From Acidobacteriota bacterium (GTDB taxonomy: Bacteria; Acidobacteriota; UBA6911; RPQK01; CBDAPI01), in contig CBDBHK010000033.1 of the NCBI GenBank assembly GCA_965205615.1, forward strand, positions 102,822 through 166,821: 64,000 bases of DNA. The letters run 5' to 3'. Below are positions 13,631 to 57,664 of the stretch, one piece after another. How positions within the stretch are numbered: the first letter of the stretch is position 1; every line of letters begins with the position of its first letter. Made by a program: the position numbers and the translations under genes. The notes beneath the pieces were generated by a model. The model was given only the letters and a program-made list of their open reading frames with translations. It made no database searches and was not told where the DNA came from.

Positions 13631-15367
13631 CCCGCATAGATCACCGATTTGGAAATGAAGGTGATTTTGGCAGGCCGGAACGGTTTTCTGAGAGTTTCGC
13701 TATCGATCCGGTCCAGGTCGAGTGATGCGGTGGTGTGGATGGTCGTGAATGGAGCGTTTTTCGGGTTCGGAAGAGCGTGACGGAATGTATTCAGGCAGAG
13801 CTCGGCCTGAGCGATGGAACGATTTCGTTTTTGGGGGCGTTTGATCGGGACAGACCTCAGCAGCGCAGAGGAATGGCCTGGAGGTTTCGAACGACGGCAG
13901 CGAAGACCTCGCTGTAGGGATAGGCTTCCGACATGGAGATCCAGACGTGGCGGACCGTGAGGCGGACCTGGGCGCCGATCTTGAGGAGCTTCAAGCGAAT
14001 CGTCTGACACTGAGCGCGAGCCAGGGGGGTCTGCTTCAGTCCGAGACGACGCAAGGCGTGCATGAGCATGTAGGCGGCGGAGGACAGATACAGCCGGAGT
14101 TGATTGGCGCGCATCGTTGCCGCGCTGGTCCGGTCGGCGAACAGACCCAACTGCTGTTCTTTTATGCGGTTCTCCATGTCGCCCCGCGCACAGTAGAAGT
14201 CTTCGTAGAGCGCGCGGGCCCCCAGGCGTTCCGGCGACAGGGAGGTGACGACGAATCGGGGATTGGCGCCTTTGTCCAGGAACTCGGCCTTGCCGACGAC
14301 GCGTCGCTCCGAGGTCCAACTGTGGCGAGTCCGGTAGCGGAAATCCTTGAACACCCGCGCCGGTCGCCCGGTGGCGTTGAACTCGGCTTCGGCCTGAGTC
14401 ATCGCTTCGGCGCTCTCTGACTTGAGCCGATCATTGTTGGCCAACCCCATCACGTAATCCACGTGATGGTCTTCACACCAGCGGAGCAAGTCATCCCGGC
14501 AAAAGCCCGAGTCGGCCCGGATGACGATCGAGACCTCCGGCCAGCTCTGCCGAATCCGGCCGACGATCCGTTCCAGTTCCTCCACCGATCCCGCGGCCCC
14601 ATCGATATTGGAACACCGCAACCGGGCGCACAGCAGATGCTCCCCCGAGAAGATGTACAGCGGGAGATAACAGTAGTGGCGGTAGTAACCGTGAAAGAAC
14701 CGGCCTTCCTGCTGGCCATGGATCGGGTCGTCGGTCGCATCCAGATCCAGCACCATCTCCTCGGGCGCCGATTCGTGGGACTCCACGAAGGCATCCACCA
14801 TCCAGCCGTCGATCCGGTCCGGGTCCATCGCGATCTTCTTGTACCGCTCCTGCTCATCGACCTCGGCGCCGGTCAACTCCAACCGGTTCAGCGTACACCT
14901 GCCCGCCAGCGCCTTCCCCCGATCTGAGGCCTGCCGCCGCCTCTCCCCCAACGGATCGGCCTTATTCACCGCCACCGCCAGCATCGGATCGGTGCGCAAC
15001 TGATCATGATCGTTCAGATCCTCGTACCCCAGACAGAGTCCGTAGATGCGCTGCCCCAACAACTCCTCGACCGTGTGTTCGATCAACCGCGGATCCCGGT
15101 GATCCCTGAAACACTCAGCCAGTCCGGCGATCAGACCCGTCCCCCTCTCGACCTCTCGCAACAGCAGCACCCCTGCATCGGAGGTGATCTTCCCGCCGTC
15201 GAACCGCGCCTTCACTTTGCGTTGAAATAGTCCGTGAAATTCGAACCTGGCTTGTTTACACTCTGTTCTCATAAGGACCGCCTCCGTTTGCGTGTGAAAA
15301 CGTTCATTCAAAACGCTTTATACCAAACAGGGCGGCCTTTTCAGGTCCCATCGGTGAGAAATGGCGG
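13631..15367 (-). mobile_element. IS1380-family insertion sequence, copy 1 (intact transposase), 4-bp CTAG target duplication
   Basis: Ends: cccgcatagatcaccgat (13631-13648) and its 13/18-matching inverted partner at 15350-15367. Flanked by ctag on both sides (13627-13630 and 15368-15371). Near-identical to the copy at 55941-57664. Confidence 0.75.
13857..15311 (-). CDS. IS1380-family DDE transposase (DDE_Tnp_1_4-like)
   Basis: 484-aa ORF. N-terminal RFDGGKITSDAGVLLLREVERGTGL is characteristic of IS1380-family transposases. DDE region and C-terminal ARGDMENRIKEQ motif present. Probable true start at MRTECKQ (15272). Confidence 0.75.
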   Translation of the reverse strand: MNERFHTQTEAVLMRTECKQARFEFHGLFQRKVKARFDGGKITSDAGVLLLREVERGTGLIAGLAECFRDHRDPRLIEHTVEELLGQRIYGLCLGYEDLNDHDQLRTDPMLAVAVNKADPLGERRRQASDRGKALAGRCTLNRLELTGAEVDEQERYKKIAMDPDRIDGWMVDAFVESHESAPEEMVLDLDATDDPIHGQQEGRFFHGYYRHYCYLPLYIFSGEHLLCARLRCSNIDGAAGSVEELERIVGRIRQSWPEVSIVIRADSGFCRDDLLRWCEDHHVDYVMGLANNDRLKSESAEAMTQAEAEFNATGRPARVFKDFRYRTRHSWTSERRVVGKAEFLDKGANPRFVVTSLSPERLGARALYEDFYCARGDMENRIKEQQLGLFADRTSAATMRANQLRLYLSSAAYMLMHALRRLGLKQTPLARAQCQTIRLKLLKIGAQVRLTVRHVWISMSEAYPYSEVFAAVVRNLQAIPLRC

Positions 15368-16243
15368 CTAGCTGTCCGCGGTGAGGCCGCCCGGTGGCCG
15401 GACAAGGACCAGAACGCGTGGCCATTCAGCATAATCTTTTCGCACCCCGAGGGTTGCCCAGCCGTTGTCGCGTGCCAGGTTCTCGACCTCTTGCAGGTTG
15501 TCGTGGGCCAACTCCAGGATGAGGCGGCCGTTATTGTGCAGCCGTTCTGGAGATCTTTCGAGAATCTCGCGGTAAAGCGCCGGCCTCCCCTCCTCGCCGA
15601 ACAAGGCCCCTCGTGGTTCATACTCGAGAACGGACCGATCGGCCTGCTCTGCGGAGGTCGGGCTCAGGTAGGGAGGATTGGACAGGATCAAGTGAAACTT
15701 CCGGGTTCCAGCGTAAGCTTGATACTTTTTGCACACGAGCCTCACTCTCTCCGTGCACCCGTACCGTCGGCAGTTTCGGGCAGCAACCTCCAGAGCAACT
15801 GGACTGGGCTCCAGGGCGGTCACCAGGATCCTGGGCTCTTCGCAGGCGAGAGAAACGGCAATGCAGCCCGAGCCGGTGCCGATGTCCAGCGCCGAAAGCT
15901 CATCCTCTTTCAGTCGGCCGGCGAGTCGGAGGGCTTCGTCCACAAGCAGTTCCGTTTCGGGTCGCGGAATCAGGACCCCGGGCCTGACTCGGAAACTGCG
16001 ACCGTAGAACTCCTGCTCTCCCGACATGTACTGGATCGGAAAGTGCTTTTGACGCAGGCGGATCAGTTGTGCATAGAGCTGCCCCTGACTATCGGTCAGC
16101 TTTGAACTCGGGGAGGTTGCGATCCAAATCGGTGCCCGCCTGAGCACCAGTCCCAAAATTGAAAAAGCGTCCACCAAGGGAATGCGGAGTCCAGAGGAGG
16201 ACAACTCATCACGGCCCAGTCGAATGGCTTCTCGAACCGTCAA
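15368..16243 (-). CDS. prmC: Release-factor glutamine N5-methyltransferase PrmC/HemK
   Basis: 291 aa. NPPY motif (LILSNPPYL) and SAM-binding [11 protein letters not shown]. Sits immediately downstream of prfA with overlapping start/stop, the conserved prfA-prmC arrangement. Confidence 0.8.
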
Positions 16244-17313
16244 GAGTGCTCTACTGCTTCTAGAGCTTCAGCCTCGTCATTCGTGGCCAGTGCATCAATG
16301 ACTTCATCCAGATCGCCCTGAAGTACCTGTTCGAGCCGGTGGAGTGTGAGGTTGATGCGATGATCGGTCACGCGGTTCTGGGGGAAGTTGTAAGTTCGGA
16401 TCTTCTCGCTGCGGTCTCCGCTACCCACCATGGCTTTGCGGTTTTCGGCAATCTCCTCCTGCTGTTTCGCTCTGGCCTTTTCGTAGAGTCGGGAGCGCAG
16501 GACTTTCATCGCTTTGGCCTTGTTCTTGTGCCAGGATTTTTCATCCTGGCAGGTCACGACTTCTCCGCTGGGCAGGTGGGTGATGCGAATCGCAGAGTAT
16601 GTCGTGTTGACTGACTGCCCTCCCGGCCCTGACGAGCAGAAAGTGTCTATCTTCAAGTCGTTGGCATCGATAGCCACCTCCAGCTCGTCGGCTTCGGGTA
16701 AAACGGCGACGGTTACCGCAGAGGTGTGGACCCGACCCTGAGTTTCCGTTTCGGGCACCCTTTGCACCCGGTGGACTCCGCTCTCGAATTTGAGCCGGCT
16801 GAAGACGCCCTGGCCTTCAATCGAGGTAATGCTTTCTTTCAGACCGCCTACCGAGGAGTAGTTAGCAGCGACCAGGTCTGTTTTCCAGCGCCTGGAGTCA
16901 GCGTAACGCGTATACATACGGAGCACTTCCTGGGCGAAAAGGGTGGCCTCGTCACCCCCTGTTCCAGCGCGAATCTCCAGGATCACATTCTTCTGGTCAT
17001 TCGGGTCCCTGGGCAAAAGAAGCTGCTTGAGGCGGTCTTCGGATTCCTTTTCGTCGGTCTCCAGCCTGGCCAACTCCTCCCGGGCCAACTGAAGAAGCTC
17101 GGGATCCGTGTCTTCGGAAAGCAGAGACTGTGTGTCGGCGATCTGTCCGGAAAGGGAAAGGTAGTGCCGATATTCGTCGACAATGCCCTGGAGTTCGGAA
17201 TGTGAGCGCGCCGCATCCCGATAACGCTCCGGAGATGCCAGGGTTTCCTGCCGGCTCAGTTCCAGGGAGAGCGCTTCATAGCGAGCTTCCAGTTCTCGTA
17301 ACCGCTGTAACAT
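16240..17313 (-). CDS. prfA: Peptide chain release factor 1
   Basis: 357 aa. GGQ motif ([11 protein letters not shown]) and an RF1-type tripeptide region ([18 protein letters not shown]). Confidence 0.9.
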
Positions 17314-17670: not shown

Positions 17671-19476
17671 ATGGGAGCAACCACGCAGACAGAAGAAAAT
17701 AAAGACAAACAAGCCAAGCCAGAGCAGGCTGTACCTGAGCTACCGCAAATCGTCGAAGAATCCGATGTTGGATACGAAGACATGGAGGCCGCCTACAAGA
17801 CCAGCTTTCGGAGTATTACGGAAGGTGAGGTCGTCGAAGGTCGGGTGCTCAAGGTCATCAGCAATGGCGTCATAGTCGATGTCGGATACAAATCCGAGGG
17901 AATGATATCTCTGCGTGAGTTCCGAAACGAGAAGGGTGAAGTCGAAGTCCAGGCCGGAGACAAAGTAGAAGTCTTACTCGAGCGTGCCGAAGGGCGGGAT
18001 GGATTCGTGGTCCTTTCCCGCGAGAAGGCGGAGCGCATGAAGATCTGGGACACAATCGAGAAGGCCTATCAGGAGCAGACCATTGTAAACGGGCGAGTCA
18101 TTGAAAGGATCAAGGGGGGACTGGCCGTAGATATCGGTGTGAGGGCTTTTCTTCCGGGCTCGCAGATTGACCTTCACCCGATCAGAAACCTGGATGTCTT
18201 CAGAGGCCAGGAGCTCGAGATGCGGGTCATCAAAGTCAATAAGAGACGGGGCAACATCGTCCTCTCGCGAAAGGCGGTTCTGGAGGAGGAGTATTTCAAA
18301 AAGAAGGAGGAGACGCTCAAGTTTCTGGAAGAGGGGCTGATTGTCTCCGGCGTCGTCAAGAACATAACCGACTATGGCGTCTTCGCGGACCTTGGCGGTA
18401 TCGACGGGTTACTCCACATCACGGACATGTCCTGGGGTCGCGTCAACCATCCTTCCGACCTGTTCCACGTGGGAGATGAGATCAATATAAAAATTCTCAA
18501 ATTCGATCGCCTGGAGGAAAAGGTGTCGCTCGGTTATAAGCAGCTGTCCGACGACCCCTGGCTGAGCGCCTCCCGACGTTATCCCAAGGGATCCCGTGTC
18601 GAGACCCGTGTTGTAAGCCTGACGGACTATGGCGCTTTCGTTGAGCTGGAGGAAGGCGTGGAGGGACTGATCCATATTTCGGAGATGACCTGGAACAAAC
18701 GGATCAAACACCCGTCGCAGTTACTGACCATAGGCGATAGTGTTGAGGCGGAAGTACTGGAAATCGATACCGAGGGTCGAAGGATCTCATTGGGGCTCAA
18801 GCAAACCGAGCCGAATCCCTGGGAAGAAATAGAAGCAAACTACGCCATCAACTCCATCGTGACGGGCCAGGTGCGGAACCTTACGGATTTCGGCGCTTTC
18901 ATTGAGGTAGAAGAGGGAGTTGACGGGCTCGTGCACGTGTCTGATTTGAGCTGGACCAAGAAGATCAAGCATCCGTCGGAAGTCTTGCAGAAAGGTGAAG
19001 AAGTCAGCGCCGTCGTCCTGAATGTTGATGCCGAACATCAACGCTTGTCGCTCGGAATCAAACAGCTCGAGCCGGACCGCTGGGAAGGGTTCTTTTCCGA
19101 GAAACAGATTGGCGACGTGATGCAGGGCAAAATCGTCAGGCTGGCTAATTTCGGAGCCTTTGTCGAGTTGGAGGAGGGCATAGAGGGCTTATGTCACGTG
19201 TCGGAACTCGACGTGGAGCGGATCGAGAACCCGGAGGACAAATTCTCGATAGGGCAGGAGCTTGACTTTAAGATCATCAAGATGAATCTTCTCGAGCGTA
19301 AGATTGGGTTGTCTATCAAAGCTCTCCTGGATCCCGGCAGCGACGAAGCTGAAGACACCTGGAGTTATGGCGCAGAAGTCGGGCGGACTTCAATAGGGGA
19401 AATTGCCGGAGACGAGCTGGGGCAGTTGAAGAAAAAGGCCGAGTTGGCAAAGGGGGACGAGAATGACGAAAGCTGA
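17671..19476 (+). CDS. rpsA: 30S ribosomal protein S1
   Basis: 601 aa with six S1 RNA-binding repeats (GxV.G.V..I...G.FV motifs repeated). An alternative start at 17782 (MEAAYKTSF) would remove an atypical N-terminal extension. Confidence 0.9.
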   Translation: MGATTQTEENKDKQAKPEQAVPELPQIVEESDVGYEDMEAAYKTSFRSITEGEVVEGRVLKVISNGVIVDVGYKSEGMISLREFRNEKGEVEVQAGDKVEVLLERAEGRDGFVVLSREKAERMKIWDTIEKAYQEQTIVNGRVIERIKGGLAVDIGVRAFLPGSQIDLHPIRNLDVFRGQELEMRVIKVNKRRGNIVLSRKAVLEEEYFKKKEETLKFLEEGLIVSGVVKNITDYGVFADLGGIDGLLHITDMSWGRVNHPSDLFHVGDEINIKILKFDRLEEKVSLGYKQLSDDPWLSASRRYPKGSRVETRVVSLTDYGAFVELEEGVEGLIHISEMTWNKRIKHPSQLLTIGDSVEAEVLEIDTEGRRISLGLKQTEPNPWEEIEANYAINSIVTGQVRNLTDFGAFIEVEEGVDGLVHVSDLSWTKKIKHPSEVLQKGEEVSAVVLNVDAEHQRLSLGIKQLEPDRWEGFFSEKQIGDVMQGKIVRLANFGAFVELEEGIEGLCHVSELDVERIENPEDKFSIGQELDFKIIKMNLLERKIGLSIKALLDPGSDEAEDTWSYGAEVGRTSIGEIAGDELGQLKKKAELAKGDENDES

Positions 19477-19738
19477 ACTTGTCGACGAGGTGTCCAGGAA
19501 TTCCGACCTGAATAAGAAGGACGCGGAAGTGATCGTCCAGACGGTTCTCGACAGCATCGTGGACTCCCTCAAGTCCGGGGAGAAAGTCGAGCTCCGGGGC
19601 TTCGGCAGTTTTCGTCTCCGCAAAAGAGCGTCCAGGCAGGGACGGAATCCCAAGACCGGGGAAAAGGTGTTCGTGCCGGCCAAACGGGTGCCCTATTTCA
19701 AGCCGGGCAAGGAACTGAAAACTCTCATTAATTCCTGA
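19463..19738 (+). CDS. ihfB: Integration host factor beta / HU-family DNA-binding protein
   Basis: 91 aa: MTKAELVDEVS...RGFGSFRLRKRASRQGRNPKTGEKVFVPAKRVPYFKPGKELK is a canonical IHF/HU fold signature. Position directly after rpsA matches the rpsA-ihfB arrangement. Confidence 0.65.
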   Translation: MTKAELVDEVSRNSDLNKKDAEVIVQTVLDSIVDSLKSGEKVELRGFGSFRLRKRASRQGRNPKTGEKVFVPAKRVPYFKPGKELKTLINS

Positions 19739-20212: not shown

Positions 20213-21547
20213 GTGCGCATGCAGTTCTGGTCGGCCGTTCTGTCTTCAATAGAGGGACGGGTTTCTAAACAGAATTTTGACATTTGGTTCAGACCCACGG
20301 CTGCTGACTCCGAAAGCGGGCAGGACCGACGCCTGGTTGTTCGCGTCCCCAACGAGTACTTTCGCTATTGGATCCACGAGAACTATTCCTCCGTCATCGA
20401 TGAAGCTCTTCAGGAAGTCGGGTTGGAGGAGTGGACCTGGGCGCTGGTTGTAGCCGATCCGGCGCCCCACCATGACAGACCTGACCCCCGGACTGAGGTC
20501 AATTCAGAAGGGCCCTGCCCTCAGGCTGCCCAGTATAATCTGAATCCCAGGTACACGTTCGATCGTTTTGTGGTGGGCAGCAGTAACCAGTTTGCTCACG
20601 CGGCCTCGCTCGCGGTAGCTGAGCAGCCTTCCAAGGCCTACAATCCCCTCTTCATCTACGGCGGCGTGGGTCTGGGCAAGACTCATCTGATGCATGCGGT
20701 CGGGCACTACATCAAGATCCGTTCCCCTCGGGTTCGTCTCACCTACATGTCGTCTGAACGCTTCATGAATGAACTGATCAATTCGATACGTTACGACAAG
20801 ACGATCCAGTTTCGTGAGAAGTACCGCAGTATCGACGTGCTGCTGATGGATGACATCGAATTCCTGGCTGGCAAGGAGCGAACCCAGGAGGAGTTCTTCC
20901 ATACGTTTAATGCGCTTTACGATAACCAGAAACAGATCGTGATCTCCAGTGACTGTCCGCCTCGCGAGATCCCGACTCTGGAGGAGCGTTTGCACAGCCG
21001 TTTCGAATGGGGGCTGATCGCCGACATTCAGGCACCGGACCTCGAGACCAAGATTGCGATCCTCAAGAAGAAGGCTGAACTGGAAGCGGTCAGCCTTCCT
21101 GACGATGTCGTGTTTTTTATAGCTCAGCACATCCGCTCCAACGTTCGAGAACTGGAAGGCTCTCTGATTCGTCTGGTCGCTTTCAGCAGTTTGACCGGAG
21201 AGAAAATCACCCTGGAGCTGGCCGAAAGGGTCCTCAAGAACATTGCCGACCAGAATGCGAGAATTATTACAGCGGAAGATGTTCAGCGGGTGGTGGCGAG
21301 CCATTTTTCCCTGAGTCCGACCGATCTGAGGACCAAGAACAACTCTCGCCGAATTGCCGAGCCGCGACAGATCGCCATGTACCTGGCACGAGAGCTGACC
21401 AAGGATTCTTTGCCTCAGATTGGCAAGGCATTCGGAGGGAAGCACCATACGACCGTCCTGCATTCGATCAGAAAGATTGAACGGCTTTCCAGAGAGGATC
21501 CTCGCATGAAGGCTTTGCTGGAGCGGTTGAGGGAACTGATCCAGTAA
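20213..21547 (+). CDS. dnaA: Chromosomal replication initiator DnaA
   Basis: 444 aa. Walker [14 protein letters not shown]+ sensor motifs, C-terminal DNA-binding helix ([27 protein letters not shown]). GTG start at 20213 or ATG at 20219. Confidence 0.9.
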
Positions 21548-21584: not shown

Positions 21585-22694
21585 ATGGAATTCGTAGTTC
21601 AGAAGGGAGAAATCCTAAAAGAGCTCCAGTATGTGCAGGGTGTGGTCGAGAAGAAGACCACCGTACCCATCCTTTCCAATCTCCTCCTCGAGACAACAGG
21701 GAACACACTGACCGTTACCGGAACTGATCTGGATGTCACCATACGGTGCAGCTGCCCTGCGGCTGTCAAGGTGGCGGGCTCGGTTACCGTCTCGGCGCGC
21801 AAGCTGTTTGATATCGTGCGACTGCTCCCGGAAGCAGAGATCCACTTCAAGATGGCCGGAGGGGATGAGTGGGTAGCCGTGACCTGCGAGCGCTTGAGAT
21901 TCAAAGTCGCAAGCCTCTCTAAAGAGAACTTTCCAGATGTACCGAAAGTCGATAGTCAGAGAATTGAGCTTCCGGCGGACTCTGTCCGCTACATGATTTC
22001 CCGATGTGTCTTTGCCATCACTCAGGAGGAATCGCGCTTCGCATTGAACGGCGCGCTCCTGATTCTAAAGGCAAACCAGATGACCCTGGTGACGACTGAT
22101 GGCCATCGACTGGCTCTGATCTCAGCGCCTGCCGAGATTCCAGGCCTGGAAGGCGAGACGAAGAGCCTGGTTCCCAAGAAAACCCTGGTCGAACTTGTGA
22201 AGCTGGCAGCTTCCGGTTACGACGTTATCCAATTCGCCAGGGACTCGAACCATCTCCTGTTCGAAGTGGGCGAACGGCTCCTGATCTCCCGGATGTTGAG
22301 TGGCCAGTTTCCCAACTACGAAATGGTGATTCCAGCGGAAAACGACAAGAACGTTCTGATCCCGACGGTTGAACTGAGCGACACGGTCCGAAGGGTTGCG
22401 ATCATGGCAGACGAGCAGTCGCGAGCCATCAAGCTTGATCTCAGTGAAGGCCAGCTGGATGTTTCGTCCAACAATGCGGATCTGGGAGAAGCGACGGCAT
22501 CTTTACCTGTGGAGTTCGAGGGCGAAGGCCTCTCGATTTGCTTTAACGCAGGATACCTGCTGGACTTCCTTTCGGCGCTCGATTCCGACAGGGTTTCCGT
22601 GCTGCTTCGAGACGGAGAAACACAGGGCCTCTTCAGTCCCGCTGACGACGAAGAGTACTCCTATAAGTACGTTGTCATGCCGATGCAGCTCTGA
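21585..22694 (+). CDS. dnaN: DNA polymerase III beta sliding clamp
   Basis: 369 aa, three-domain clamp pattern. Immediately follows dnaA. Confidence 0.9.
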   Translation: MEFVVQKGEILKELQYVQGVVEKKTTVPILSNLLLETTGNTLTVTGTDLDVTIRCSCPAAVKVAGSVTVSARKLFDIVRLLPEAEIHFKMAGGDEWVAVTCERLRFKVASLSKENFPDVPKVDSQRIELPADSVRYMISRCVFAITQEESRFALNGALLILKANQMTLVTTDGHRLALISAPAEIPGLEGETKSLVPKKTLVELVKLAASGYDVIQFARDSNHLLFEVGERLLISRMLSGQFPNYEMVIPAENDKNVLIPTVELSDTVRRVAIMADEQSRAIKLDLSEGQLDVSSNNADLGEATASLPVEFEGEGLSICFNAGYLLDFLSALDSDRVSVLLRDGETQGLFSPADDEEYSYKYVVMPMQL

Positions 22695-22876: not shown

Positions 22877-25264
<2,388 letters not shown>

Positions 25265-28023: not shown

Positions 28024-28026
28024 CAG

Positions 28027-47735: not shown

Positions 47736-47789
47736 GGGCGAAAGACATCATGATTCAGGGCACCAACTCGGGATCCGGGGGCGTCGCCA

Positions 47790-47823
47790 TGCTGTGTATA
47801 ATTGGAGTTTGGTAAGGGAGTTC
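47790..47823 (+). promoter_or_regulatory. Candidate internal promoter / RBS between nuoN and nuoA (TATAAT at 47797-47802; aagggag RBS)
   Basis: ctgtgtataattggagtttggtaagggagttcATG read in the 88-bp nuoN-nuoA gap. Confidence 0.4.
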
Positions 47824-48177: not shown

Positions 48178-48682
48178 CATGCTGACCGATAAGCTGTTTC
48201 TGACCAGTCGCCTCGATGAGGCTCTGGGTTGGGCGCGCAAGTTTTCCATCTTTCAGTACCCGTTTGTTACCGCGTGCTGCGGCATGGAATATATGGCCAC
48301 GGCCTGTTCTCACTACGACGTCGACCGTTTCGGAGCCGGTTTGCCCCGATTCTCCCCGCGCCAGGCGGACGTGCTTTTCGTTGTGGGCACAATCAGTCAC
48401 AAAATGGCGCCGGTCCTGGAACGCATCCACGAGCAGATGGCCGAGCCCAAATGGGTTGTCGCTTTCGGGGTCTGCACCTGCACGGGTGGCTTCTACGACA
48501 ACTACGCAACCGTGATGGGTATTGACACGATCATACCCGTGGACGTCTACATACCGGGTTGCCCTCCGCGGCCGGAAAACGTTATTGACGGGCTGATGAA
48601 GCTCCAGGACAAAATTCAGGACGAGCACTCCAGCGGCCGCCGATCCGCACCCGAGAGTCGTCCGGACGTTTTGACAGAATGA
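48178..48682 (+). CDS. nuoB: NADH-quinone oxidoreductase subunit B
   Basis: CCGMEYMATA, GVCTCTGG, PGCPPRP: the N2 cluster cysteines of NuoB. Confidence 0.9.
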
Positions 48683-49260
48683 GTATCTCCACTCTCATTG
48701 AGTCTGTCAGCGACCGCTTCCCCGAGGCTGTAGCGGCTTCTCACGCTTATCGTGGCGACGAAACCGTGGTTTTGCGCCGGGAGTTCCTGGTCGAGGTCGC
48801 ACGCTTTCTCAAAGAGGACCCGTCCCTGCAAATGAACTTCCTCATGGATGTGACAGCCGTGGACTATTCTTCTTTCGGGAAGAGTTCCGCGCCGGCTTTC
48901 TTCGCATCCTCGGGTGTCGGTGTGAATCCCCTGACCCAGATCCAGGATGAGGACCCCTGGCCCGGACCCCCGGGGGATGAGCGTTTTGCGGTCGTGTACC
49001 ACTTCTATTCTCTGAAGTACAAGCACCGCCTGCGGCTGGTGGTTCCCGTGGAGGAGGGGGAGCCCGAAGTAGATTCGCTGAACTCGCTGTGGGGCGGAGC
49101 AAACTGGCTCGAGCGTGAAGTCTGGGACATGTTTGGAATCCGATTCCGTGGACATCCGGATCTCAAGCGCATTCTCATGTACGAAGAGTTCGAGGGACAT
49201 GCGCTGCGCAAGGACTACCCCGTCAATAAGCGTCAACCTTTGACCGGACCCCTGAACTGA
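48679..49260 (+). CDS. nuoC: NADH-quinone oxidoreductase subunit C
   Basis: 193 aa. NuoC motifs (ANWLEREVWDMFGIRFRGHPDLKRIL). Confidence 0.85.
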   Translation: MSISTLIESVSDRFPEAVAASHAYRGDETVVLRREFLVEVARFLKEDPSLQMNFLMDVTAVDYSSFGKSSAPAFFASSGVGVNPLTQIQDEDPWPGPPGDERFAVVYHFYSLKYKHRLRLVVPVEEGEPEVDSLNSLWGGANWLEREVWDMFGIRFRGHPDLKRILMYEEFEGHALRKDYPVNKRQPLTGPLN

Positions 49261-49303
49261 TGAAAACCCCAACCTCCAATCGTCGCTCCCCGGCTCAAGC
49301 TCG

Positions 49304-50680
49304 ATGATGCCCGAATCAGCCCCTCCCAGGGAGACCTCCCAACACGAGGCCGCGGACCTCGAGACCCGGGACATGATGCTCAACATCGGCCCCGCCCACC
49401 CGGCCATGCACGGGATCGTCAGGATCGTGGCGGAACTCGACGGGGAGCAGATCCAGGAAGCTGAAGTGGAGATCGGCTATCTCCACCGCGGCTTTGAGAA
49501 GATGGCGGAAGTAGTGGACTACAACGGCGTCATCCCCTACACCGATCGCCTCAACTACGTCTCGCCGCTCATCAACAACATGGGCTACTGCATGACCGTC
49601 GAGAAACTGCTCGGGATATCGGTCCCGGAGCGCTGCCACTACGTCAGGGTCATCACTTCGGAGATCTCCCGCATCTCGGACCATCTCACTTGCGTGGGAG
49701 CGACGGCCATGGAGCTGGGCGCTTTCAGCGTTTTCCTCTACATGATCAAGGCCCGGGAGTATCTCTGGGAGCTGGTGGAGATGGTCACCGGGGCGCGCCT
49801 GACGGTCAGCTACTGTCGCGTCGGCGGCGTGAAGGCCGACCTTCCCGAGGACTTTGCCGAGGGTTGTCGCAAGGCCTTCGAGGAAACCCGCAAGGTCCTG
49901 GACGAGGCCTCCGGTCTGCTGACGCGCAACCGGATTTTCACCGACCGAATGAACGACACGGGAGTGATCTCGGCGGAAGACGCCATCTCCTACGGCATCA
50001 CCGGCCCCTTTCTGCGCGCCAGTGGCGCCGACTATGACGTTCGGAAGGACTGCCCCTACTCCGTCTACGACCGGATCCCTTTCGATGTGCCCGTCGGAAC
50101 CCGTGGCGACAACATGGATCGCTACCTGGTTCGCATGGAGGAGATGGAGCAGTCCATGCGCATCGTGGAGACGGCGCTGCGAGATCTGCCTTCCGGCCCG
50201 GTTCAGGTCCACCCGGAGACGGGTCGGCCGATTCCGGCCGCGGAGATGGTGGATCTTGCCAAGGTGGGTGACATCGCGGCCATTTCGGGCGGAAGCGCCA
50301 TCACCGGTCCAACCCTGGAGGGATCCGGCCGCGACCGGTATCCATCCATAGCCACGGACGAAAAACGCGCCTTCCTCCCTCCCAAAGAGGATACCTATGG
50401 CAACATCGAGGGACTCATGCACCACTTTAAGCTGGTCATGTACGGCCACGGTGTGCGGCCGCCCAGGGGAGAGGTGTACTTCCCCGTCGAGGGAGCTAAC
50501 GGAGAACTCGGGTTTTACGTGGTGAGCGATGGAGCGGGGACCGCCTACCGGGTTCGGGTTCGTCCCCCCTGCTTCGCCATTATGTCGGCCCTGCCCGAGC
50601 TTGTGGTGGGCGATATGATGGCCGACCTGGTCCCCACCTTCGGGTCCGTCAATATGATCGGAGGAGAGCTCGACCGATGA
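49304..50680 (+). CDS. nuoD: NADH-quinone oxidoreductase subunit D
   Basis: MMLNIGPAHPAMHGIVRIV...IGYLHRGFEK...RPPCFA is canonical NuoD/49-kDa. Alternative start at 49373 is likely. Contains a ~40-aa insertion relative to compact NuoD. Confidence 0.85.
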   Translation: MMPESAPPRETSQHEAADLETRDMMLNIGPAHPAMHGIVRIVAELDGEQIQEAEVEIGYLHRGFEKMAEVVDYNGVIPYTDRLNYVSPLINNMGYCMTVEKLLGISVPERCHYVRVITSEISRISDHLTCVGATAMELGAFSVFLYMIKAREYLWELVEMVTGARLTVSYCRVGGVKADLPEDFAEGCRKAFEETRKVLDEASGLLTRNRIFTDRMNDTGVISAEDAISYGITGPFLRASGADYDVRKDCPYSVYDRIPFDVPVGTRGDNMDRYLVRMEEMEQSMRIVETALRDLPSGPVQVHPETGRPIPAAEMVDLAKVGDIAAISGGSAITGPTLEGSGRDRYPSIATDEKRAFLPPKEDTYGNIEGLMHHFKLVMYGHGVRPPRGEVYFPVEGANGELGFYVVSDGAGTAYRVRVRPPCFAIMSALPELVVGDMMADLVPTFGSVNMIGGELDR

Positions 50681-52476
50681 AGCTTTCCGATCTTGAGCCC
50701 GGGGCCAGAGAGATCCTGCAACGCTACGAACGATCCAGGGCGGCTATGTTGCCGGTGTTGTGGCTCGTCCAGGAAAACCAGGGGTACGTCTCTCAGGAGG
50801 CGGAGGTCTGGGTGGCGAGCATCCTGAGTGTAGCCCGTGCCCAGGTACGCGAGGCGGTCTCCTTTTACAACATGTTCCACACACGGCCGGTGGGCCGTCG
50901 CGAGCTTCGAGTGTGCACCAGTCTGCCCTGTATGTTGCGGGGTGCCGGGGAGTTACTGGAGCAGATTCAGGAGCGCTGGAAGATTCGTCCGGGCCAGACC
51001 ACGGCAGGTGGGGAGGTCACGCTCACCGAGGTCGAGTGTCTCTGTGCCTGCGAGATGTCCCCTATGGCCCAGCTCGACGAAGCTTTTCTCGGGCCCCTGG
51101 AGAGAGGGACACTGGAAACCGTCCTGCGGGCCGGGCTCGAGGATCCCGAAGATTCGCGACCCCTTTCCGAGCCTGAGCCCTATATCTCCACAGACGGTCC
51201 GGTGCTTTCCACGCGCTTCGAGAACCCGGCCGGAATCTGGTTGCAAGACTACGTGACCGACAATGGGTATGAGGGCGCTGCCAGGGCTCTCACTTCCATG
51301 ACACCGGAGCAGGTGATCGAGGAGATATCCGGAGCCAACTTGCGGGGTCTCGGCGGCGCGGGGTTTCCAGCCGGCAGAAAATGGTCCTTCGTGCCCAGGG
51401 AATCGCAAAAGCCCAAGTTCCTGGTGGCGAACGCAGACGAAGGGGAACCGGGCACTTTCAAGGATCGCTACATCATGGAGCGCGACCCGCACGCACTCAT
51501 CGAAGGCATGATTATTGCCGCCTATGCCATCGGGAGTCACAAGGCCTACGTGTATATTCGGGGCGAGTACTTCCGGTCGGCCAGGCGTTTACAACGCGCC
51601 CTCGATGAAGCCTACAGCCAGGGCTGGCTGGGTAAGGATATCCAGGGGTCCGGTTTTGATCTGGATGTGGTCATTCACCGGGGCGCGGGGGCCTATATCT
51701 GCGGCGAAGAAACCGCGCTCCTGACTTCGCTCGAGGGCGGGAAGGGTTTCCCCAAGCTCAAGCCTCCGTTCCCCGCCATTTCGGGTCTCTTTCAATGCCC
51801 GACCATCGTCAACAACATTGAGACTCTCGCCTGTGTCCCATTCATTCTGAACCATGGAGCCGAGCGTTTTGCCGGCATTGGCACGGACCGGCAGGGCGGT
51901 ACGCGGCTCTTTTGCGTGAGCGGACATGTGGTCCGACCGGGGGTCTATGAGGAGCCGGTCGGCATCACCCTGAGAGAACTGATCGAGAAGGCGGGGGGTG
52001 TCCGGGACGGCAAGAGGCTCAAGGCCGTCATCCCCGGAGGCATTTCGGCCAAAATTCTGACCGCCGATGAGATTGACGTGGCCATGGACTTTGACTCCCT
52101 GATGGCGGCCGGCAGCATGGCCGGATCGGGGGGAGTGATCGTGATGGACGAGAGCACCTGCATGGTCGAGGCACTCGACTCCGCGGCCCGGTTTTTCGCC
52201 GACGAGTCGTGCGGACAATGCTCGCCCTGCCGTGAGGGTACGGGGTGGGTCCATCGGATTGTCCGCCGTATTGTGGAAGGCAGGGGGAACCTCCAGGATC
52301 TGGACCAGTTGCTCGCCATCGCCGGCGACATGGAAGGCAATACGATCTGCGTCTTCGCCGACGCAGCCGCCTGGCCTGTCCAGTCTTACATCGCGAAATT
52401 TCGGGACGAGTTCGAGGACTACATTCGGAGCGGCCGTGGAGCCGGGAAAAAGGAGGCCGATGCATGCCCAGCCTGA
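50677..52476 (+). CDS. nuoEF: Fused NuoE-NuoF (24-kDa 2Fe-2S subunit joined to 51-kDa FMN/NADH-binding subunit) in one 599-aa ORF
   Basis: Residues ~1-160 are NuoE (CTSLPC...VECLCACEMSP cysteine pairs). A ~90-aa linker follows. Then comes NuoF (GLGGAGFPAGRKW FMN/NADH motifs, ESCGQCSPCREG N3 cluster). No stop codon lies between them in this sequence. Confidence 0.75.
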   Translation: MKLSDLEPGAREILQRYERSRAAMLPVLWLVQENQGYVSQEAEVWVASILSVARAQVREAVSFYNMFHTRPVGRRELRVCTSLPCMLRGAGELLEQIQERWKIRPGQTTAGGEVTLTEVECLCACEMSPMAQLDEAFLGPLERGTLETVLRAGLEDPEDSRPLSEPEPYISTDGPVLSTRFENPAGIWLQDYVTDNGYEGAARALTSMTPEQVIEEISGANLRGLGGAGFPAGRKWSFVPRESQKPKFLVANADEGEPGTFKDRYIMERDPHALIEGMIIAAYAIGSHKAYVYIRGEYFRSARRLQRALDEAYSQGWLGKDIQGSGFDLDVVIHRGAGAYICGEETALLTSLEGGKGFPKLKPPFPAISGLFQCPTIVNNIETLACVPFILNHGAERFAGIGTDRQGGTRLFCVSGHVVRPGVYEEPVGITLRELIEKAGGVRDGKRLKAVIPGGISAKILTADEIDVAMDFDSLMAAGSMAGSGGVIVMDESTCMVEALDSAARFFADESCGQCSPCREGTGWVHRIVRRIVEGRGNLQDLDQLLAIAGDMEGNTICVFADAAAWPVQSYIAKFRDEFEDYIRSGRGAGKKEADACPA

Positions 52477-54101
52477 CCATCAACGGGCGTGAGACCACGG
52501 TTCCTGACGGAACCACGGTTATCCAGGCGGCCGAGAAGATGGGAATCTTCGTTCCCCGCTACTGCTATCATCCCGGGCTCTCTATCGCGGGCAACTGCCG
52601 CATCTGCCTCGTCGAAGTGGAAAAATTCCCCAAGCTCCAGATTGCCTGTAACCTGCCGGCCACGGAGGGGATGGTCGTGCACACCCTGAGCGACAAAGCC
52701 GAGGCCGGCCGCCGCGCCGTACTGGAGTTTCTGCTTGCCAACCACCCTCTGGACTGCCCGGTCTGCGACCAGTCCGGTGAGTGTGACCTGCAGAACTTCT
52801 ACATGAACTTCGGGCTCTACGACCCGCGCTTCAGGGAGCACAAAGTCAAGAAGCGAAAAGCCGTTGAAATAGGTCCGCATGTCATGCTGGATCAGGAACG
52901 CTGTATCCTCTGCTCCCGCTGTGTCCGCTTTACCGACGAGATCACGCGGACCGGGGAGTTCGGGATCTTTAACCGCGGAGACCGGGCTGAGCTGGGTCTG
53001 TGCCCCGACGAGGTGCTCGACAATCCCTACTCGGCCAACGTGGTGGACATCTGCCCGGTGGGGGCCCTGACCGAGGCTGATTTCCGTTTCAAGGCCAGGG
53101 TCTGGTACCTCTCCAGCGCTCCCACGGTATGCAACGGGTGCAGCCAGGGCTGTAACATGGATCTCCACTTTGTGCTCGACAGACCCCACCTGAACGACGG
53201 GGCACGGGTGGTGCGCATCAAGCCCCGTCCCAACCCGGATGTCAACCAGTGGTGGCTGTGCGATGAAGGGCGCTACGGCTTTGACTGGGTCGACCGGGAT
53301 CGCCTGGACAAGGTACGCGGCCCGTCGCCGGACGCGACCTGGGAGCGGGCCCTTACAGAGATCTCACTCGCCCTGGCCGGGTTGCGCCGGGAGGGAGCCG
53401 CAGCCCGGGAAGGGGCAGACTGTCGGATCGGCGTCATCGCTTCGGCCCAACTCACCACCGAGGAGCTCTTTTTGATCCGGGAAATCTTTCAGACCGCCCT
53501 GGGCGCCCGGGTGACGGCCCTGGTTCCTGAGGAACCGGGAACCAGCGATGACTTCCTGATCAAGGCGGATAAGAATCCGAATACCGCGGGTGCAACTCTG
53601 CTGGGCCTGGCCGGCCCGGACTCGCCGGAAGCCCGCCAGCTGGTGGACGAAGCGCTGGGCGGAACCCTCGACGTTCTGTGGGTCTTCGGGCACGATCTGG
53701 TGCGACCCTTCGGAGAAAAAACAGTCCGGCGACTGTCGGAGCAAGTGCCTCTCTTCGTGTTCTCGGGAACCAACAAAAATGCCACCGCGGCTCTGGCACA
53801 CTGGGTGCTTCCCACCGCAGCCTACATGGAGAAGGACGGGACCTTTGTGAACTGCCATGGCCGCGTCCAGCGCATCGGTTGCGCTTTTCCGCCTCTCGCG
53901 GACTCCCGGGAAGAGTGGCGCATTCTCCTGGAGGTGGCCACGAAGCTGGGTCTGTCTTTCGATTGGCGGAAACCGGAGGAGATCTTTGGGGGGATGAGCA
54001 GGACCTTGGCGCCTTTTCAGGGATTGAGTTATGCAAGGATCGGGGCCCAGGGGGTTGACCTGGGGACGGCCCAGCCCCCGGCCGGGAGGGCTGCACCATG
54101 A
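52464..54101 (+). CDS. nuoG: NADH-quinone oxidoreductase subunit G (short, 545-aa form)
   Basis: Starts at ATG 52464 (MPSLTINGRETTVPDG), overlapping the nuoEF end. 2Fe-2S CRICLVEV, HPLDCPVCDQSGEC, CILCSRCVRF, CPVGAL cluster motifs. Confidence 0.85.
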   Translation: MPSLTINGRETTVPDGTTVIQAAEKMGIFVPRYCYHPGLSIAGNCRICLVEVEKFPKLQIACNLPATEGMVVHTLSDKAEAGRRAVLEFLLANHPLDCPVCDQSGECDLQNFYMNFGLYDPRFREHKVKKRKAVEIGPHVMLDQERCILCSRCVRFTDEITRTGEFGIFNRGDRAELGLCPDEVLDNPYSANVVDICPVGALTEADFRFKARVWYLSSAPTVCNGCSQGCNMDLHFVLDRPHLNDGARVVRIKPRPNPDVNQWWLCDEGRYGFDWVDRDRLDKVRGPSPDATWERALTEISLALAGLRREGAAAREGADCRIGVIASAQLTTEELFLIREIFQTALGARVTALVPEEPGTSDDFLIKADKNPNTAGATLLGLAGPDSPEARQLVDEALGGTLDVLWVFGHDLVRPFGEKTVRRLSEQVPLFVFSGTNKNATAALAHWVLPTAAYMEKDGTFVNCHGRVQRIGCAFPPLADSREEWRILLEVATKLGLSFDWRKPEEIFGGMSRTLAPFQGLSYARIGAQGVDLGTAQPPAGRAAP

Positions 54102-55192
54102 TGGAAGTTCTGATCATCAAGGTGGCGCTGGCCGGCGTCGTTTTTTTCGGGATCTTGAACTTCGCAGGGTTTCACACCTGGGTGGAGCGCAAACAGTCGG
54201 CCCTGATCCAGGACCGGATCGGTGCCAATCGGGCCTCGATCTTCGGATTCCGGGCGCTGGGACTTTTCCACGGCCTGGCCGATGTGCTCAAGATGTTCAC
54301 CAAAGAGGACATCGTCCCCACAGGGGCCGACAGGACGCTCCACACCCTGGCCCCGCTGTTCTCGGTGTTTTTTGCTCTGGTGGCCTTTGCCGCGATCCCT
54401 TTTGGAGACCGCCTCATCCTGGGCGACGGTCTGGTTATCGACCTGCAGGTGGCCAAGATCGACGCGGCTCTGCTCTATGTCTTCGCCATGCTCTCGCTCG
54501 GGGTCTACGGCGTGATTCTGGCCGGCTTCGCCTCGGGCAGCAACTACGCCATCATCGGGGGGCTGAGAGCCATGGCGCAGATGATCTCCTACGAGATCGC
54601 CCTGGGCATTGCCGTTGTCGGAGTGATCATGGTCTATGGGACCATGGATCTGGGTGAACTGGTGCGGGGCCAGGGGTACCTGATCGGCGGGTGGATCCCC
54701 TTCTGGGGCTTTCTCGCCCAGCCGGTCGCCTTCTTCATCTTCGTGACGGCGGCCCTGGCTGAAACCAAGCGACTTCCCTTCGACCTGCCGGAAGGCGAGT
54801 CGGAGATTATCGGATACTTTGTGGAGTACAGCGGCATGAAGTTCGGGATGTTTTTCCTCACGGATTTCCTGGAAACCATCATGGTCGCCTGTCTGGCCAC
54901 AACGCTTTTCTTCGGCGGCTGGCAGGTGCCTTTTCTGATGCCGGACGGTTTCCACTTCCCCTGGGGGGCACAGCTGCCGGTTCCCCATTTGATGTATGTG
55001 CTTCTCGGGGTGGCCAGCTTTTCAACCAAGGTCGTGATTTTCTGCTGGTTCTTCATGCAACTGCGCTGGACCCTGCCGCGCTTCCGCTACGACCAGCTCA
55101 TGAGTCTGGGCTGGAAGGGGCTCTTTCCCATCGCAGTGGCGAACGTGGTGGTGACAGCCGTAGTGCTGGTCTTTTTCGGGGAGGCGTCGTGA
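54098..55192 (+). CDS. nuoH: NADH-quinone oxidoreductase subunit H
   Basis: 364 aa. NuoH/ND1 motifs (SGSNYAIIGGLRAMAQMISYEI, EAKRLPFDLPEGESE). Confidence 0.9.
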   Translation: MMEVLIIKVALAGVVFFGILNFAGFHTWVERKQSALIQDRIGANRASIFGFRALGLFHGLADVLKMFTKEDIVPTGADRTLHTLAPLFSVFFALVAFAAIPFGDRLILGDGLVIDLQVAKIDAALLYVFAMLSLGVYGVILAGFASGSNYAIIGGLRAMAQMISYEIALGIAVVGVIMVYGTMDLGELVRGQGYLIGGWIPFWGFLAQPVAFFIFVTAALAETKRLPFDLPEGESEIIGYFVEYSGMKFGMFFLTDFLETIMVACLATTLFFGGWQVPFLMPDGFHFPWGAQLPVPHLMYVLLGVASFSTKVVIFCWFFMQLRWTLPRFRYDQLMSLGWKGLFPIAVANVVVTAVVLVFFGEAS

Positions 55193-55818
55193 TGGCCGTA
55201 AAAGTAGTCAGCAGACCCGAATTGACTTTCTGGGAAAAGCTCTACGTTCCGCAGATCCTGTGCGGCCTCAAAATCACCTCGGCCCATTTCTTCCGAAATC
55301 TTTTTCTTCACATCCTCCACCTCATCGGTCGCTTCAAGCATCTGCCCGCCTCGGTGACGATTCAATACCCCGATGAGCTGAGGCCGCTCATGTCGCGCTT
55401 CCGCAGTCGCCACCGGCTCACTCTGCGCGAGGATGACACCCCGCGCTGTGTGGGGTGCATGCTTTGCGAGACCGTCTGCCCGGCCAAATGCATCACGATC
55501 GTGCCCGGCGAGCACCCCGATCCCCACATCGAGAAGTATCCAATCCGCTTCGACATCGACCTGGGGATTTGCGTTTACTGCGGGTACTGCGTCGAGGCCT
55601 GCCCGGAGGACGCCATCCGAATGGACACAGGTATCCTCGACATCGCGGCCTACTCCAGGGAAGCAATGCAACTGGACATCCATGAGCTCATGGACCCGAA
55701 GTTACGGAAGCCGATCAAGGACTGCAGCCTGGAGTTCCCCCACCAGTGCGAGCTGCACGGTGGAGACATGAAGGGCAGCTGGGAAGCGGTGGATGGCTCG
55801 GTGGGACAAAAAGCCTAG
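55189..55818 (+). CDS. nuoI: NADH-quinone oxidoreductase subunit I (with ~50-aa C-terminal extension)
   Basis: Two 4Fe-4S ferredoxin motifs (CVGCMLCETVCP, CVYCGYCVEACP). 209 aa, longer than typical NuoI. Confidence 0.85.
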   Translation: MMAVKVVSRPELTFWEKLYVPQILCGLKITSAHFFRNLFLHILHLIGRFKHLPASVTIQYPDELRPLMSRFRSRHRLTLREDDTPRCVGCMLCETVCPAKCITIVPGEHPDPHIEKYPIRFDIDLGICVYCGYCVEACPEDAIRMDTGILDIAAYSREAMQLDIHELMDPKLRKPIKDCSLEFPHQCELHGGDMKGSWEAVDGSVGQKA

Positions 55819-55940
55819 ACACGGTCCGCCGAATGACTCTACAGTGGTTCGAGGTTCAGCAGTACACGAACCAGGCCCGCAGGCCATCGAGCCGCAATCT
55901 TGCCGAGCATGGAGTTCAATATGGGGATCATCAGTACTAA

Positions 55941-57664
55941 CCCGCATAGATCACCGATAGGACCTGAAAAGGCCGCCCTGTTTGGTATAAAGCGTTTTGA
56001 ATGAAAGACTTCAAAGCCAAACGGAGGCGGCCCTTATGAGAACAGAGTGTAAACAAGACAGGTTCGAATTTCACGGACTATTTCAACGCAAAGTGAAGGC
56101 GCGGTTCGACGGCGGGAAGATCACCTCCGATGCAGGGGTGCTGCTGTTGCGAGAGGTCGAGAGGGGGACGGGTCTGATCGCCGGACTGGCTGAGTGTTTC
56201 AGGGATCACCGGGATCCGCGGTTGATCGAACACACGGTCGAGGAGTTGTTGGGGCAGCGCATCTACGGACTCTGTCTGGGGTACGAGGATCTGAACGATC
56301 ATGATCAGTTGCGCACCGATCCGATGCTGGCGGTGGCGGTGAATAAGGCCGATCCGTTGGGGGAGAGGCGGCGGCAGGCCTCAGATCGGGGGAAGGCGCT
56401 GGCGGGCAGGTGTACGCTGAACCGGTTGGAGTTGACCGGCGCCGAGGTCGATGAGCAGGAGCGGTACAAGAAGATCGCGATGGACCCGGACCGGATCGAC
56501 GGCTGGATGGTGGATGCCTTCGTGGAGTCCCACGAATCGGCGCCCGAGGAGATGGTGCTGGATCTGGATGCGACCGACGACCCGATCCATGGCCAGCAGG
56601 AAGGCCGGTTCTTTCACGGTTACTACCGCCACTACTGTTATCTCCCGCTGTACATCTTCTCGGGGGAGCATCTGCTGTGCGCCCGGTTGCGGTGTTCCAA
56701 TATCGATGGGGCCGCGGGATCGGTGGAGGAACTGGAACGGATCGTCGGCCGGATTCGGCAGAGCTGGCCGGAGGTCTCGATCGTCATCCGGGCCGACTCG
56801 GGCTTTTGCCGGGATGACTTGCTCCGCTGGTGTGAAGACCATCACGTGGATTACGTGATGGGGTTGGCCAACAATGATCGGCTCAAGTCAGAGAGAGCCG
56901 AAGCGATGACTCAGGCCGAAGCCGAGTTCAACGCCACCGGGCGACCGGCGCGGGTGTTCAAGGATTTCCGCTACCGGACTCGCCACAGTTGGACCTCGGA
57001 GCGACGCGTCGTCGGCAAGGCCGAGTTCCTGGACAAAGGCGCCAATCCCCGATTCGTCGTCACCTCCCTGTCGCCGGAACGCCTGGGGGCCCGCGCGCTC
57101 TACGAAGACTTCTACTGTGCGCGGGGCGACATGGAGAACCGCATAAAAGAACAGCAGTTGGGTCTGTTCGCCGACCGGACCAGCGCGCCAATCAACTCCG
57201 GCTGTATCTGTCCTCCGCCGCCTACATGCTCATGCACGCCTTGCGTCGTCTCGGACTGAAGCAGACCCCCCTGGCTCGCGCTCAGTGTCAGACGATTCGC
57301 TTGAAGCTCCTCAAGATCGGCGCCCAGGTCCGCCTCACGGTCCGCCACGTCTGGATCTCCATGTCGGAAGCCTATCCCTACAGCGAGGTCTTCGCTGCCG
57401 TCGTTCGAAACCTCCAGGCCATTCCTCTGCGCTGCTGAGGTCTGTCCCGATCAAACGCCCCCAAAAACGAAATCGTTCCATCGCTCAGGCCGAGCTCTGC
57501 CTGAATACATTCCGTCACGCTCTTCCGAACCCGAAAAACGCTCCATTCACGACCATCCACACCACCGCATCACTCGACCTGGACCGGATCGATAGCGAAA
57601 CTCTCAGAAAACCGTTCCGGCCTGCCAAAATCACCTTCATTTCCAAATCGGTGATCTATGCGGG
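55941..57664 (+). mobile_element. IS1380-family insertion sequence, copy 2 (inverted relative to copy 1; transposase inactivated by 13-bp deletion)
   Basis: Perfect 18-bp terminal inverted repeats cccgcatagatcaccgat (55941-55958) / atcggtgatctatgcggg (57647-57664). Flanks ctaa / ctag. Internal sequence near-identical to copy 1. Confidence 0.8.
55997..57438 (+). pseudogene. IS1380-family transposase with 13-nt deletion (gcaacgatgcgcg missing after 57187) causing frameshift
   Basis: Direct DNA comparison with copy 1: accagcgcg|ccaatc here versus accagcgcg-gcaacgatgcgcg-ccaatc in copy 1. The deletion is flanked by a gcgcg microhomology. The ORF splits into 55997-57259 and 56989-57438. Confidence 0.8.

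Follow-up and report, generated by a model that had tools for sequence, protein, structure and literature searches.

Probable inter-copy recombination in two inverted IS1380-family elements that bracket the dnaA region of an uncultured Acidobacteriota bacterium

We analysed a 64,000-nt stretch of DNA from an Acidobacteriota bacterium (hereafter the window; GCA_965205615.1, contig CBDBHK010000033.1, positions 102,822-166,821 of the forward strand) in which two inverted copies of an IS1380-family insertion sequence (IS) bracket a segment of 40,573 bp (15368-55940) that carries dnaA. Both copies are unremarkable representatives of an IS that is present in many copies and still active. Comparison with closely related strains makes it likely that they are two separate insertions, each of which later recombined with copies elsewhere in the genome, and that the arrangement reflects ordinary IS-driven plasticity.

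The two copies and their transposases

Copy 1 (13631-15367, minus strand; 1,737 bp) has its right terminal inverted repeat (IRR) at 13631-13648 and its left one (IRL) at 15350-15367 (the 'a' variant, CCGCCATTTCTCACCGAT), and copy 2 (55941-57664, plus strand; 1,724 bp; the 'b' variant) has its IRL at 55941-55958 and its IRR at 57647-57664. A repeat search of the window returned two inverted arm pairs, 13623-14112/57183-57672 (100%) and 14117-15371/55937-57191 (99%), separated by a single indel. Together with the alignment below, this bears out the near-identical inverted copies around a 40.6-kb segment that a first-pass annotation of this DNA had described. Global alignment resolved the indel as 13 nt missing from copy 2, equivalent to window positions 14108-14120 (CGCGCATCGTTGC) and flanked by two CGCGC repeats, with the deletion junction in GCGCG at 57183-57187. 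Besides this indel, the copies differ by 15 substitutions. Thirteen of these are concentrated in the 91 nt from the transposase ATG to the left end (15277-15367), and the other ~1,650 nt contain only two, at 14412 (S287R) and 15250 (A8D), reading from copy 1 to copy 2. The terminal repeats of copy 2 match at 18/18 positions (CCCGCATAGATCACCGAT) and those of copy 1 at 13/18 (CCGCCATTTCTCACCGAT versus CCCGCATAGATCACCGAT). Copy 1 is flanked by CTAG on both sides, at 13627-13630 on its outer (IRR) side and at 15368-15371, its original target, in which 15368-15370 form the prmC TAG stop (minus strand). Copy 2 is flanked by CTAA at 55937-55940, its target, 118 nt past the nuoI stop, and by an unmatched CTAG at 57665-57668 on its IRR side.

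Copy 1 encodes an intact transposase of 471 aa (13857-15272, minus strand), as had been claimed, with an ATG at 15272 and GGAGG 8 nt upstream. PF13701 matched it with an E value of 2.3e-156 (520.9 bits against a cut-off of 34.7), and the NCBIfam model NF033539, 'IS1380 family transposase', scored 384.5 bits (cut-off 180). By tblastn, it was 50.4% identical to the type element IS1380A over residues 1-458 (97% of its length; E value 1e-134), and the matched feature carries the annotation 'IS1380-like element IS1380A family transposase'. The assignment to this family made from sequence at first pass thus agrees with Pfam, NCBIfam and homology to IS1380A. Elements of the IS1380 family are ~1.55-2.0 kb long with one long transposase open reading frame (ORF), have short terminal inverted repeats starting with CC, and are flanked by direct repeats of 4-5 bp. 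The element described here, with 1,737 bp, a single 471-aa ORF, 18-bp repeats starting with CCCG or CCGC and 4-bp flanking repeats, has all of the testable defining features of the family. Residues D176/D178, D254 and Y360-R363-E367-K371 (Y-x2-R-x3-E-x3-K) were invariant in an alignment of 19 sequences, a pattern of conservation that points to a DDE rather than a DDD motif.

The corresponding ORF of copy 2 (56036-57259, plus strand; 407 aa) contains residues 1-384 of the native protein, with D8 and R287 in place of A8 and S287 as its two substitutions, followed by 23 out-of-frame residues. Alignment and ORF together confirm the earlier description of a frameshifting 13-nt deletion between short repeats. 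The frameshift begins at residue 385, downstream of the DDE residues, which are retained; the C-terminal 87 aa are gone. Because many of the positions invariant in the 19-sequence alignment lie within these lost residues, the product of copy 2 is probably inactive. Because both element ends are kept, copy 2 could still be mobilised in trans and could still recombine. In a sister strain (ctg586280; L013 gene table), the same copy 2 insertion encodes an intact 471-aa transposase.

An exact-protein look-up found the identical 471-aa protein in 175 blocks of an assembly collection that seemingly does not hold the window's own assembly. One 375-kb contig has five copies and a 1.07-Mb contig has at least five, all at different sites. 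The hosts are uncultured Acidobacteriota in long-read metagenome assemblies from soil, and their genomes additionally hold IS3, IS21, IS256-like and IS630 elements and group II introns.

Empty sites and outer flanks in related strains

Exact-protein look-ups recovered five strain backgrounds that are mutually close (99.3-99.7% identity). Among them, ctg586280 (605 kb, 99.7%) is collinear with window positions 3205-59368 and has both IS copies in the same orientation, with copy 2 intact. This contig bears on whether the arrangement or the 13-nt deletion could be an assembly artefact at a repeat. Repeats are classic misjoin sites, and the deletion-variant protein is not on record elsewhere, but this independent assembly from another sample, at 99.7% identity, reproduces both junctions and their orientation, and the junctions are base-exact at the IS ends. 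We regard an artefact as very improbable.

The copy 1 site is empty in ctg495594 (2.03 Mb, 99.3%), which reads prmC…GAGAG CTAG TGTGCTG…folE and has a single CTAG at this position (L018/L105). The copy 2 site is empty in three other contigs (ctg240844, ctg836093 and ctg250567, all 99.7%), which read …CAGTA CTAA AGAGTCGTG… and continue through ~200 bp of non-IS DNA into an IS21 element; the sequence that follows this CTAA (AGAGTCG…) is not in the window. In two of these three, ctg240844 and ctg836093, copy 1 is abutted by another IS of the IS1380 family (ISb), beyond which lies a methyltransferase gene, and the left flank of the window is not there; ctg250567 stops short of prmC. The outer neighbour of prmC therefore comes in three versions among the strains: folE, the beta-helix gene of the window, or ISb with the methyltransferase gene. 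We also found the reciprocal junction, MscS…CTAG–IS–CTAG…folE, which was located via the FolE variant P0134. It is present in four contigs; these come from three samples, one of which also holds the window-like contig. Thus, copy 1 has both an empty site and a reciprocal junction as marks of a hybrid copy, and copy 2 has an empty site and the unmatched CTAA/CTAG. The exact-protein look-up returned no match in the collection for NuoI (GTG start), the beta-helix protein, PrfA, DUF1990, the truncated copy 2 protein or the FolE representative P0002.

Because the empty-site strains continue into other DNA and the folE half of the original site sits on other contigs, the outer flanks of both copies appear to be non-ancestral and both copies appear to be recombinant. 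The beta-helix/choice-of-anchor-Q gene on the outer left flank of copy 1 (11108-13579, plus strand) is not the ancestral neighbour of prmC, as judged from L018, L011 and L020. The IS630-family transposase remnant beyond copy 2 (57669-58774, minus strand; PF13358; NF033545 at 71.8 bits, below the cut-off of 100) is not the ancestral neighbour of nuoI. The first-pass annotation had placed copy 1 at the prmC stop, within a 4-bp duplication. Insertion at the stop CTAG is supported by the single CTAG in the IS-free strain, but the two CTAGs now around copy 1 are probably a coincidental pair and not one duplicated target, because in that strain folE, and not the window's left flank, follows prmC. 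The CTAA beside copy 2 had been taken as a target variant; with the CTAA site empty in three strains, the CTAA/CTAG mismatch looks instead like a recombination scar. Copy 2 also seems to be younger than the rearrangement at copy 1, because strains in which the prmC side is rearranged do not have copy 2.

Exchange between copies is also visible within the elements. The left end of copy 1 (CCGCCATTTCTCACCG) is common to at least eight insertions elsewhere (L006, L007, L010, L025, L028, L049 and L106-L108), several of the insertions with this type of left end show perfect target duplications, and the clade consensus CCCGCATTTCTCACCG is nearer to the left repeat of copy 1 than to the 'perfect' repeat. 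Its recurrence elsewhere, in several cases between perfect duplications, marks it as a transposition-competent subfamily variant. The earlier counts of 18/18 and 13/18 are correct, but the left repeat described as degenerate is not a sign of decay. The leader has two variable blocks, the terminal repeat and positions 66-77, for which all four combinations and partial mosaics were found. In the window, copy 1 is of type a+x and copy 2 of type b+y; the corresponding copies in other strains are a+y for copy 1 (L011 and L016) and a b+x/y hybrid for copy 2 (L013). Because the block combinations all occur and copies at the same site differ between strains, we take these mosaics as direct evidence of gene conversion between copies.

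Taken together, the favoured history would run as follows. Copy 1 would first have inserted into the CTAG that holds the prmC stop, between prmC and folE, and copy 2 would have inserted later into CTAA, 118 nt past nuoI. Each would then have exchanged with another genomic copy, through inversions or through integrations of DNA between two direct copies, which would have left it half 'own' and half 'foreign' and replaced its outer DNA. In the window strain, copy 2 would subsequently have lost 13 nt by slippage between the CGCGC repeats. Several observations weigh against this history. The prmC and folE junction halves are on different contigs, and what links them to one genome is that they come from one sample at comparable coverage (29x and 33x). 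For copy 2, no reciprocal junction (IS, CTAA, AGAGTCG…) was recovered; the CTAA right flank and the other flanks lie beside no IS in the more than 100 loci examined, and the flank patterns had no match in two scans of Joint Genome Institute (JGI) metagenomes. The 13-nt deletion is present in one assembly only. The absence of an inverted isomer of the segment, considered below, is weak evidence, as it comes from two assemblies only. Finally, the IS-free strain is taken as ancestral, and seamless excision would make its empty site secondary.

This last point amounts to a rival history in which the IS-free sites arose by seamless excision and the strain with prmC next to folE is derived. IS1380 is regarded as a prokaryotic relative of piggyBac (PMC10140906); both have termini of the form CC(C)…(G)GG and duplicate a TA-centred palindrome of 4 bp, and each empty site contains exactly one copy of the target. 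However, the IS-free strain is the most divergent of the set (99.3% versus 99.7%) and behaves as an outgroup, regaining the prmC–folE junction would require a deletion between copies followed by excision, and the material searched held no direct evidence of excision by this family. We consider secondary empty sites quite unlikely and favour the two insertions with later exchange.

Several further features of these sites were observed. In the sister strain ctg586280 (L016, 4783 region, corresponding to window 15368-15371), the prmC stop has changed from TAG to TCG, and PrmC runs nine codons into the left end of the IS (300 aa versus 291). In the IS-free strain (L105 9037-10549), folE lies 88 nt after prmC on the same strand, possibly in one operon, and in L106-L108 folE comes immediately after the right end of an IS copy, from which it might now be driven. 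ISb is 1,652 bp long, encodes a 445-aa transposase and has perfect 16-bp repeats (CCCGGATTATGCAAGA) and CTAG flanks (L011 8618-10269 and L107 8254-9908). Its insertion site is the CTAG that the main IS recreated at its own right end, and its orientation varies between strains. Each insertion recreates two rare targets and seems to seed pile-ups, as do tandem IS1380A copies that share one TCGA. The beta-helix gene is seemingly split over two frames, with a signal-peptide N terminus in ORF 10464-11432 and the body in 11108-13579, and may be a pseudogene or contain a sequencing indel. An apparent shared flank with a distant copy (L012/L014), in which BLAST extension covered 17 nt of the prmC flank, was dropped as a chance resemblance, the similarity of TCACCGCCGGCCCG and TCACCGCGGACAG being loose.

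Rearrangement extends beyond the two copies. Leftwards of 3205 the window and ctg586280 diverge, close to where a group II intron region (reverse transcriptase/maturase ORF 3697-4659) has its edge at ~3.2 kb, and their order is shuffled to the right of 59368, where the window has hicAB (~58.8-59.7 kb) and an IS3-family orfAB (60979-62477). There are therefore more repeat-mediated breakpoints within the 64 kb.

The bracketed segment and the question of inversion

The segment begins with prmC (15368-16243, minus strand; TIGR03534, 223.8 bits against a cut-off of 199), whose TAG stop abuts the end of copy 1. It is followed by prfA (16240-17313, minus strand) and rpsA (17671-19476), both identified by profile search, and by HU (19463-19738). 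Pfam or NCBIfam models identified dnaA (20213-21547), dnaN (21585-22694), gyrB (22895-25264) and gyrA (25555-28023). The nuo cluster (40517-55818) consists of nuoJ-nuoN followed by nuoA-nuoI, with J, L, M, N, D, EF, G, H and I confirmed by Pfam/NCBIfam. Its gene order is permuted (J…L-M-N, then A-B-C-D-(E-F fused)-G-H-I), and the fused nuoEF encodes 599 aa. The dnaA-dnaN-gyrBA and nuo content reported at first pass is therefore as described. The oriC that was reported with it was not observed as such: a cumulative GC-skew minimum at ~16-17 kb and the dnaA context make it likely that the origin is in the segment. Near dnaA there are three DnaA-box 9-mers only, each with one mismatch (19970, 20204 and 21549), and across the window such boxes are not enriched (8 found versus 5.9 expected).

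The two copies are a legitimate substrate for homologous inversion, and inversion of the intervening segment is mechanistically possible. A stronger proposal is that they form a working inversion pair, with both orientations of the 40.6-kb origin segment existing now or in the recent past. The copies are 99% identical over 1.7 kb and inverted, recombination between copies is active in these genomes, and an inversion spanning the origin would be expected to be nearly neutral, as it would keep the orientation of genes relative to replication, preserve GC skew and shift the origin by only ~34 kb. For the same reason, GC skew was rejected as a test: such an inversion leaves skew polarity and gene-to-fork orientation unchanged. 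However, both copies are present in only two assemblies, the window and ctg586280, which are collinear across each of the junctions, and a 29x HiFi contig passes both copies unbroken. No inverted isomer was seen; both of the assemblies with both copies share one orientation, a sample of two in which rare isomers could be missed. Moreover, exchange between copy 1 and copy 2 would give folE–IS–nuoI and prmC–IS–AGAGTCG junctions, neither of which was seen among the assemblies compared, and would not give the junctions of the IS with the beta-helix gene or IS630, or the MscS–IS–folE junction, that are present. We therefore consider a working inversion pair unlikely. Of the first-pass proposal that the inverted copies are substrates for inversion, the capacity to recombine stands, with gene conversion evident; inversion itself was not observed and fails to explain the flanks.

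The segment also contains a 272-bp element resembling a miniature inverted-repeat transposable element (MITE) at 25265-25536, between the gyrB stop and gyrA, with TTAG/CTAG flanks and imperfect terminal inverted repeats of ~28 bp (CAGTCCGTGGTGGAAATCGCG… / …CGCGATTTTCACCACGGGCTG). It is missing in L018, where a single CTAG contains the gyrB stop, and diverged relatives of it adjoin IS1380-like right ends in L039, L043 and L044. These features suggest that a second CTAG-targeting element is present. A further 149 bp (29412-29560) are missing from L018; they are 90% similar, with indels, in other strains and have no obvious terminal repeats or duplication. Outside the segment, a perfect 129-nt tandem duplication (282-539; 43 codons, in frame) lies within ORF 86-1207, which encodes a xylose-isomerase-like TIM-barrel protein.

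Target choice and comparison with known systems

The 12 local copies of the element have CTAG, CTAA or TTAG as flanks, with matching pairs in 8/12 and unmatched pairs in 4/12. A wider census took in 80 related loci (58-100% protein identity) in species-representative genomes of Acidobacteriota, Gammaproteobacteria, Planctomycetota and others. Among the 68 loci with clear CC…GG ends, the flanks were CTAG/CTAG in 38, TTAG/TTAG in 6 and CTAA/CTAA in 6; TTAA occurred at one flank only (L083). Relatives on the Pseudomonas putida plasmid pKF715A and on a Bradyrhizobium plasmid likewise have CTAG before CCCGCATTT… and CTAG at the far end. For IS1380A, nine full copies on one Acetobacter plasmid had TCGA/TCGA in five cases, TCAA/TCAA in one and unmatched flanks in three. 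By these counts, the target of this clade is YTAR, mostly CTAG, with a 4-bp duplication, and the general rule may be duplication of a palindromic tetranucleotide specific to each clade. The palindromic target preference proposed at first pass thus extends to YTAR clade-wide and to TCGA in IS1380A, and CTAG, about which the same annotation had raised the question, is the usual target for this clade (38/68 loci with CTAG on both sides). The literature searched contains no paper that ties IS1380 to CTAG or YTAR; we do not claim novelty.

Insertion at the prmC stop is expected, because YTAR includes TAG and TAA and about a third of such sites end ORFs. ORFs of at least 100 codons end at 33% of 69 occupied sites and at 35% of the free CTAG, CTAA and TTAG sites in the window, and stop-codon targeting as a special property was rejected on this comparison. 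No tetranucleotide in the window is more depleted than CTAG (34 observed versus 235 expected from base composition).

Because the target is near-invariant, matching CTAG flanks are uninformative. This bears on a further rival, that the segment and both IS copies form a composite transposon and entered a CTAG together. Each of the two copies has an intact IRR facing outwards, next to the same tetranucleotide (CTAG/CTAG), but a match at the default target carries no information. The putative unit also includes dnaA and the likely origin and occupies one and the same relative position in each of the five strains, strains whose prmC side is already rearranged do not have copy 2, and the folE half of the original site bears an IS and not a scar. 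With uninformative flanks, a single relative location and copy 2 absent from three contigs, we rejected this candidate and give it almost no credence. Two insertions with later exchange remain the preferred account.

The preferred account has practical consequences. The origin region is structurally unstable among strains 0.3-0.7% apart, driven by one abundant insertion sequence, and this instability bears on binning, scaffolding and synteny-based inference in long-read metagenome-assembled genomes (MAGs) from soil. With a near-invariant target, matching flanking repeats are no proof of simple insertion, and comparison with empty sites is needed.

The arrangement does not represent a new type of system, and nothing indicates that the origin flips in a regulated or recurrent way. 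The closest named relative, IS1380A of Acetobacter pasteurianus, similarly has a single ORF in ~1.7 kb (1,665 bp versus 1,737 bp here), inverted repeats with a common …AAATCTCAC / …TTTCTCAC core, a 4-bp palindromic duplication, a high copy number and adjacent copies that share one target. It differs in its target, TCGA/TCRA instead of CTAG/YTAR, and in its termini, CGCGG instead of CCCGC. ISEcp1, another member of the family, makes duplications of 5 bp in AT-rich DNA, with no fixed tetranucleotide. Outward promoters and the capture of adjacent DNA are known properties of ISEcp1 and ISPme1 (PMC9330008). By contrast, we found no sign of one-ended mobilisation here, as both ends of both copies are authentic.

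Outside the family, IS5 reportedly duplicates 4 bp at YTAR/CTAG, according to a study in E. coli. The element described here resembles it in this target choice and in frequent recombination between copies, but belongs to a different transposase family: PF13701 (DDE_Tnp_1_4) was the best Pfam match and NF033539 the sole NCBIfam match, and no IS5-family model matched. It is also longer than IS5, and its termini differ. IS-mediated inversions in Bordetella pertussis, Yersinia pestis and E. coli mutation-accumulation lines similarly have near-identical IS copies at synteny breakpoints and hybrid copies with unmatched duplications, whereas the present material consists of metagenome contigs in which an origin-spanning inversion was not observed.

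IS1380 is considered to be distantly related to the eukaryotic piggyBac elements (PMC10140906). Like the element described here, these have CCC…GGG-type termini and duplicate a 4-bp, TA-centred palindrome, but they target TTAA, where this clade uses CTAG, CTAA or TTAG. One possibility, which we hold only tentatively and regard as somewhat doubtful, is that the IS1380 family as a whole picks a fixed palindromic 4-bp target that varies by clade, YTAR here, in four phyla or more, and TCGA in IS1380A, with the same geometry as piggyBac. On that view, an IS1380/piggyBac superfamily would have inherited 4-bp staggered joining at a specific tetranucleotide, and perhaps also seamless excision, from its ancestor, and some of the 'empty' sites in these strains could be excision products. 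Each insertion would also regenerate two rare targets and so lead to pile-ups of IS and MITE copies, such as those at copy 1 in sister strains and at gyrB. The combination of a clade-wide YTAR target with TCGA in IS1380A offers a clean, testable parallel with piggyBac.

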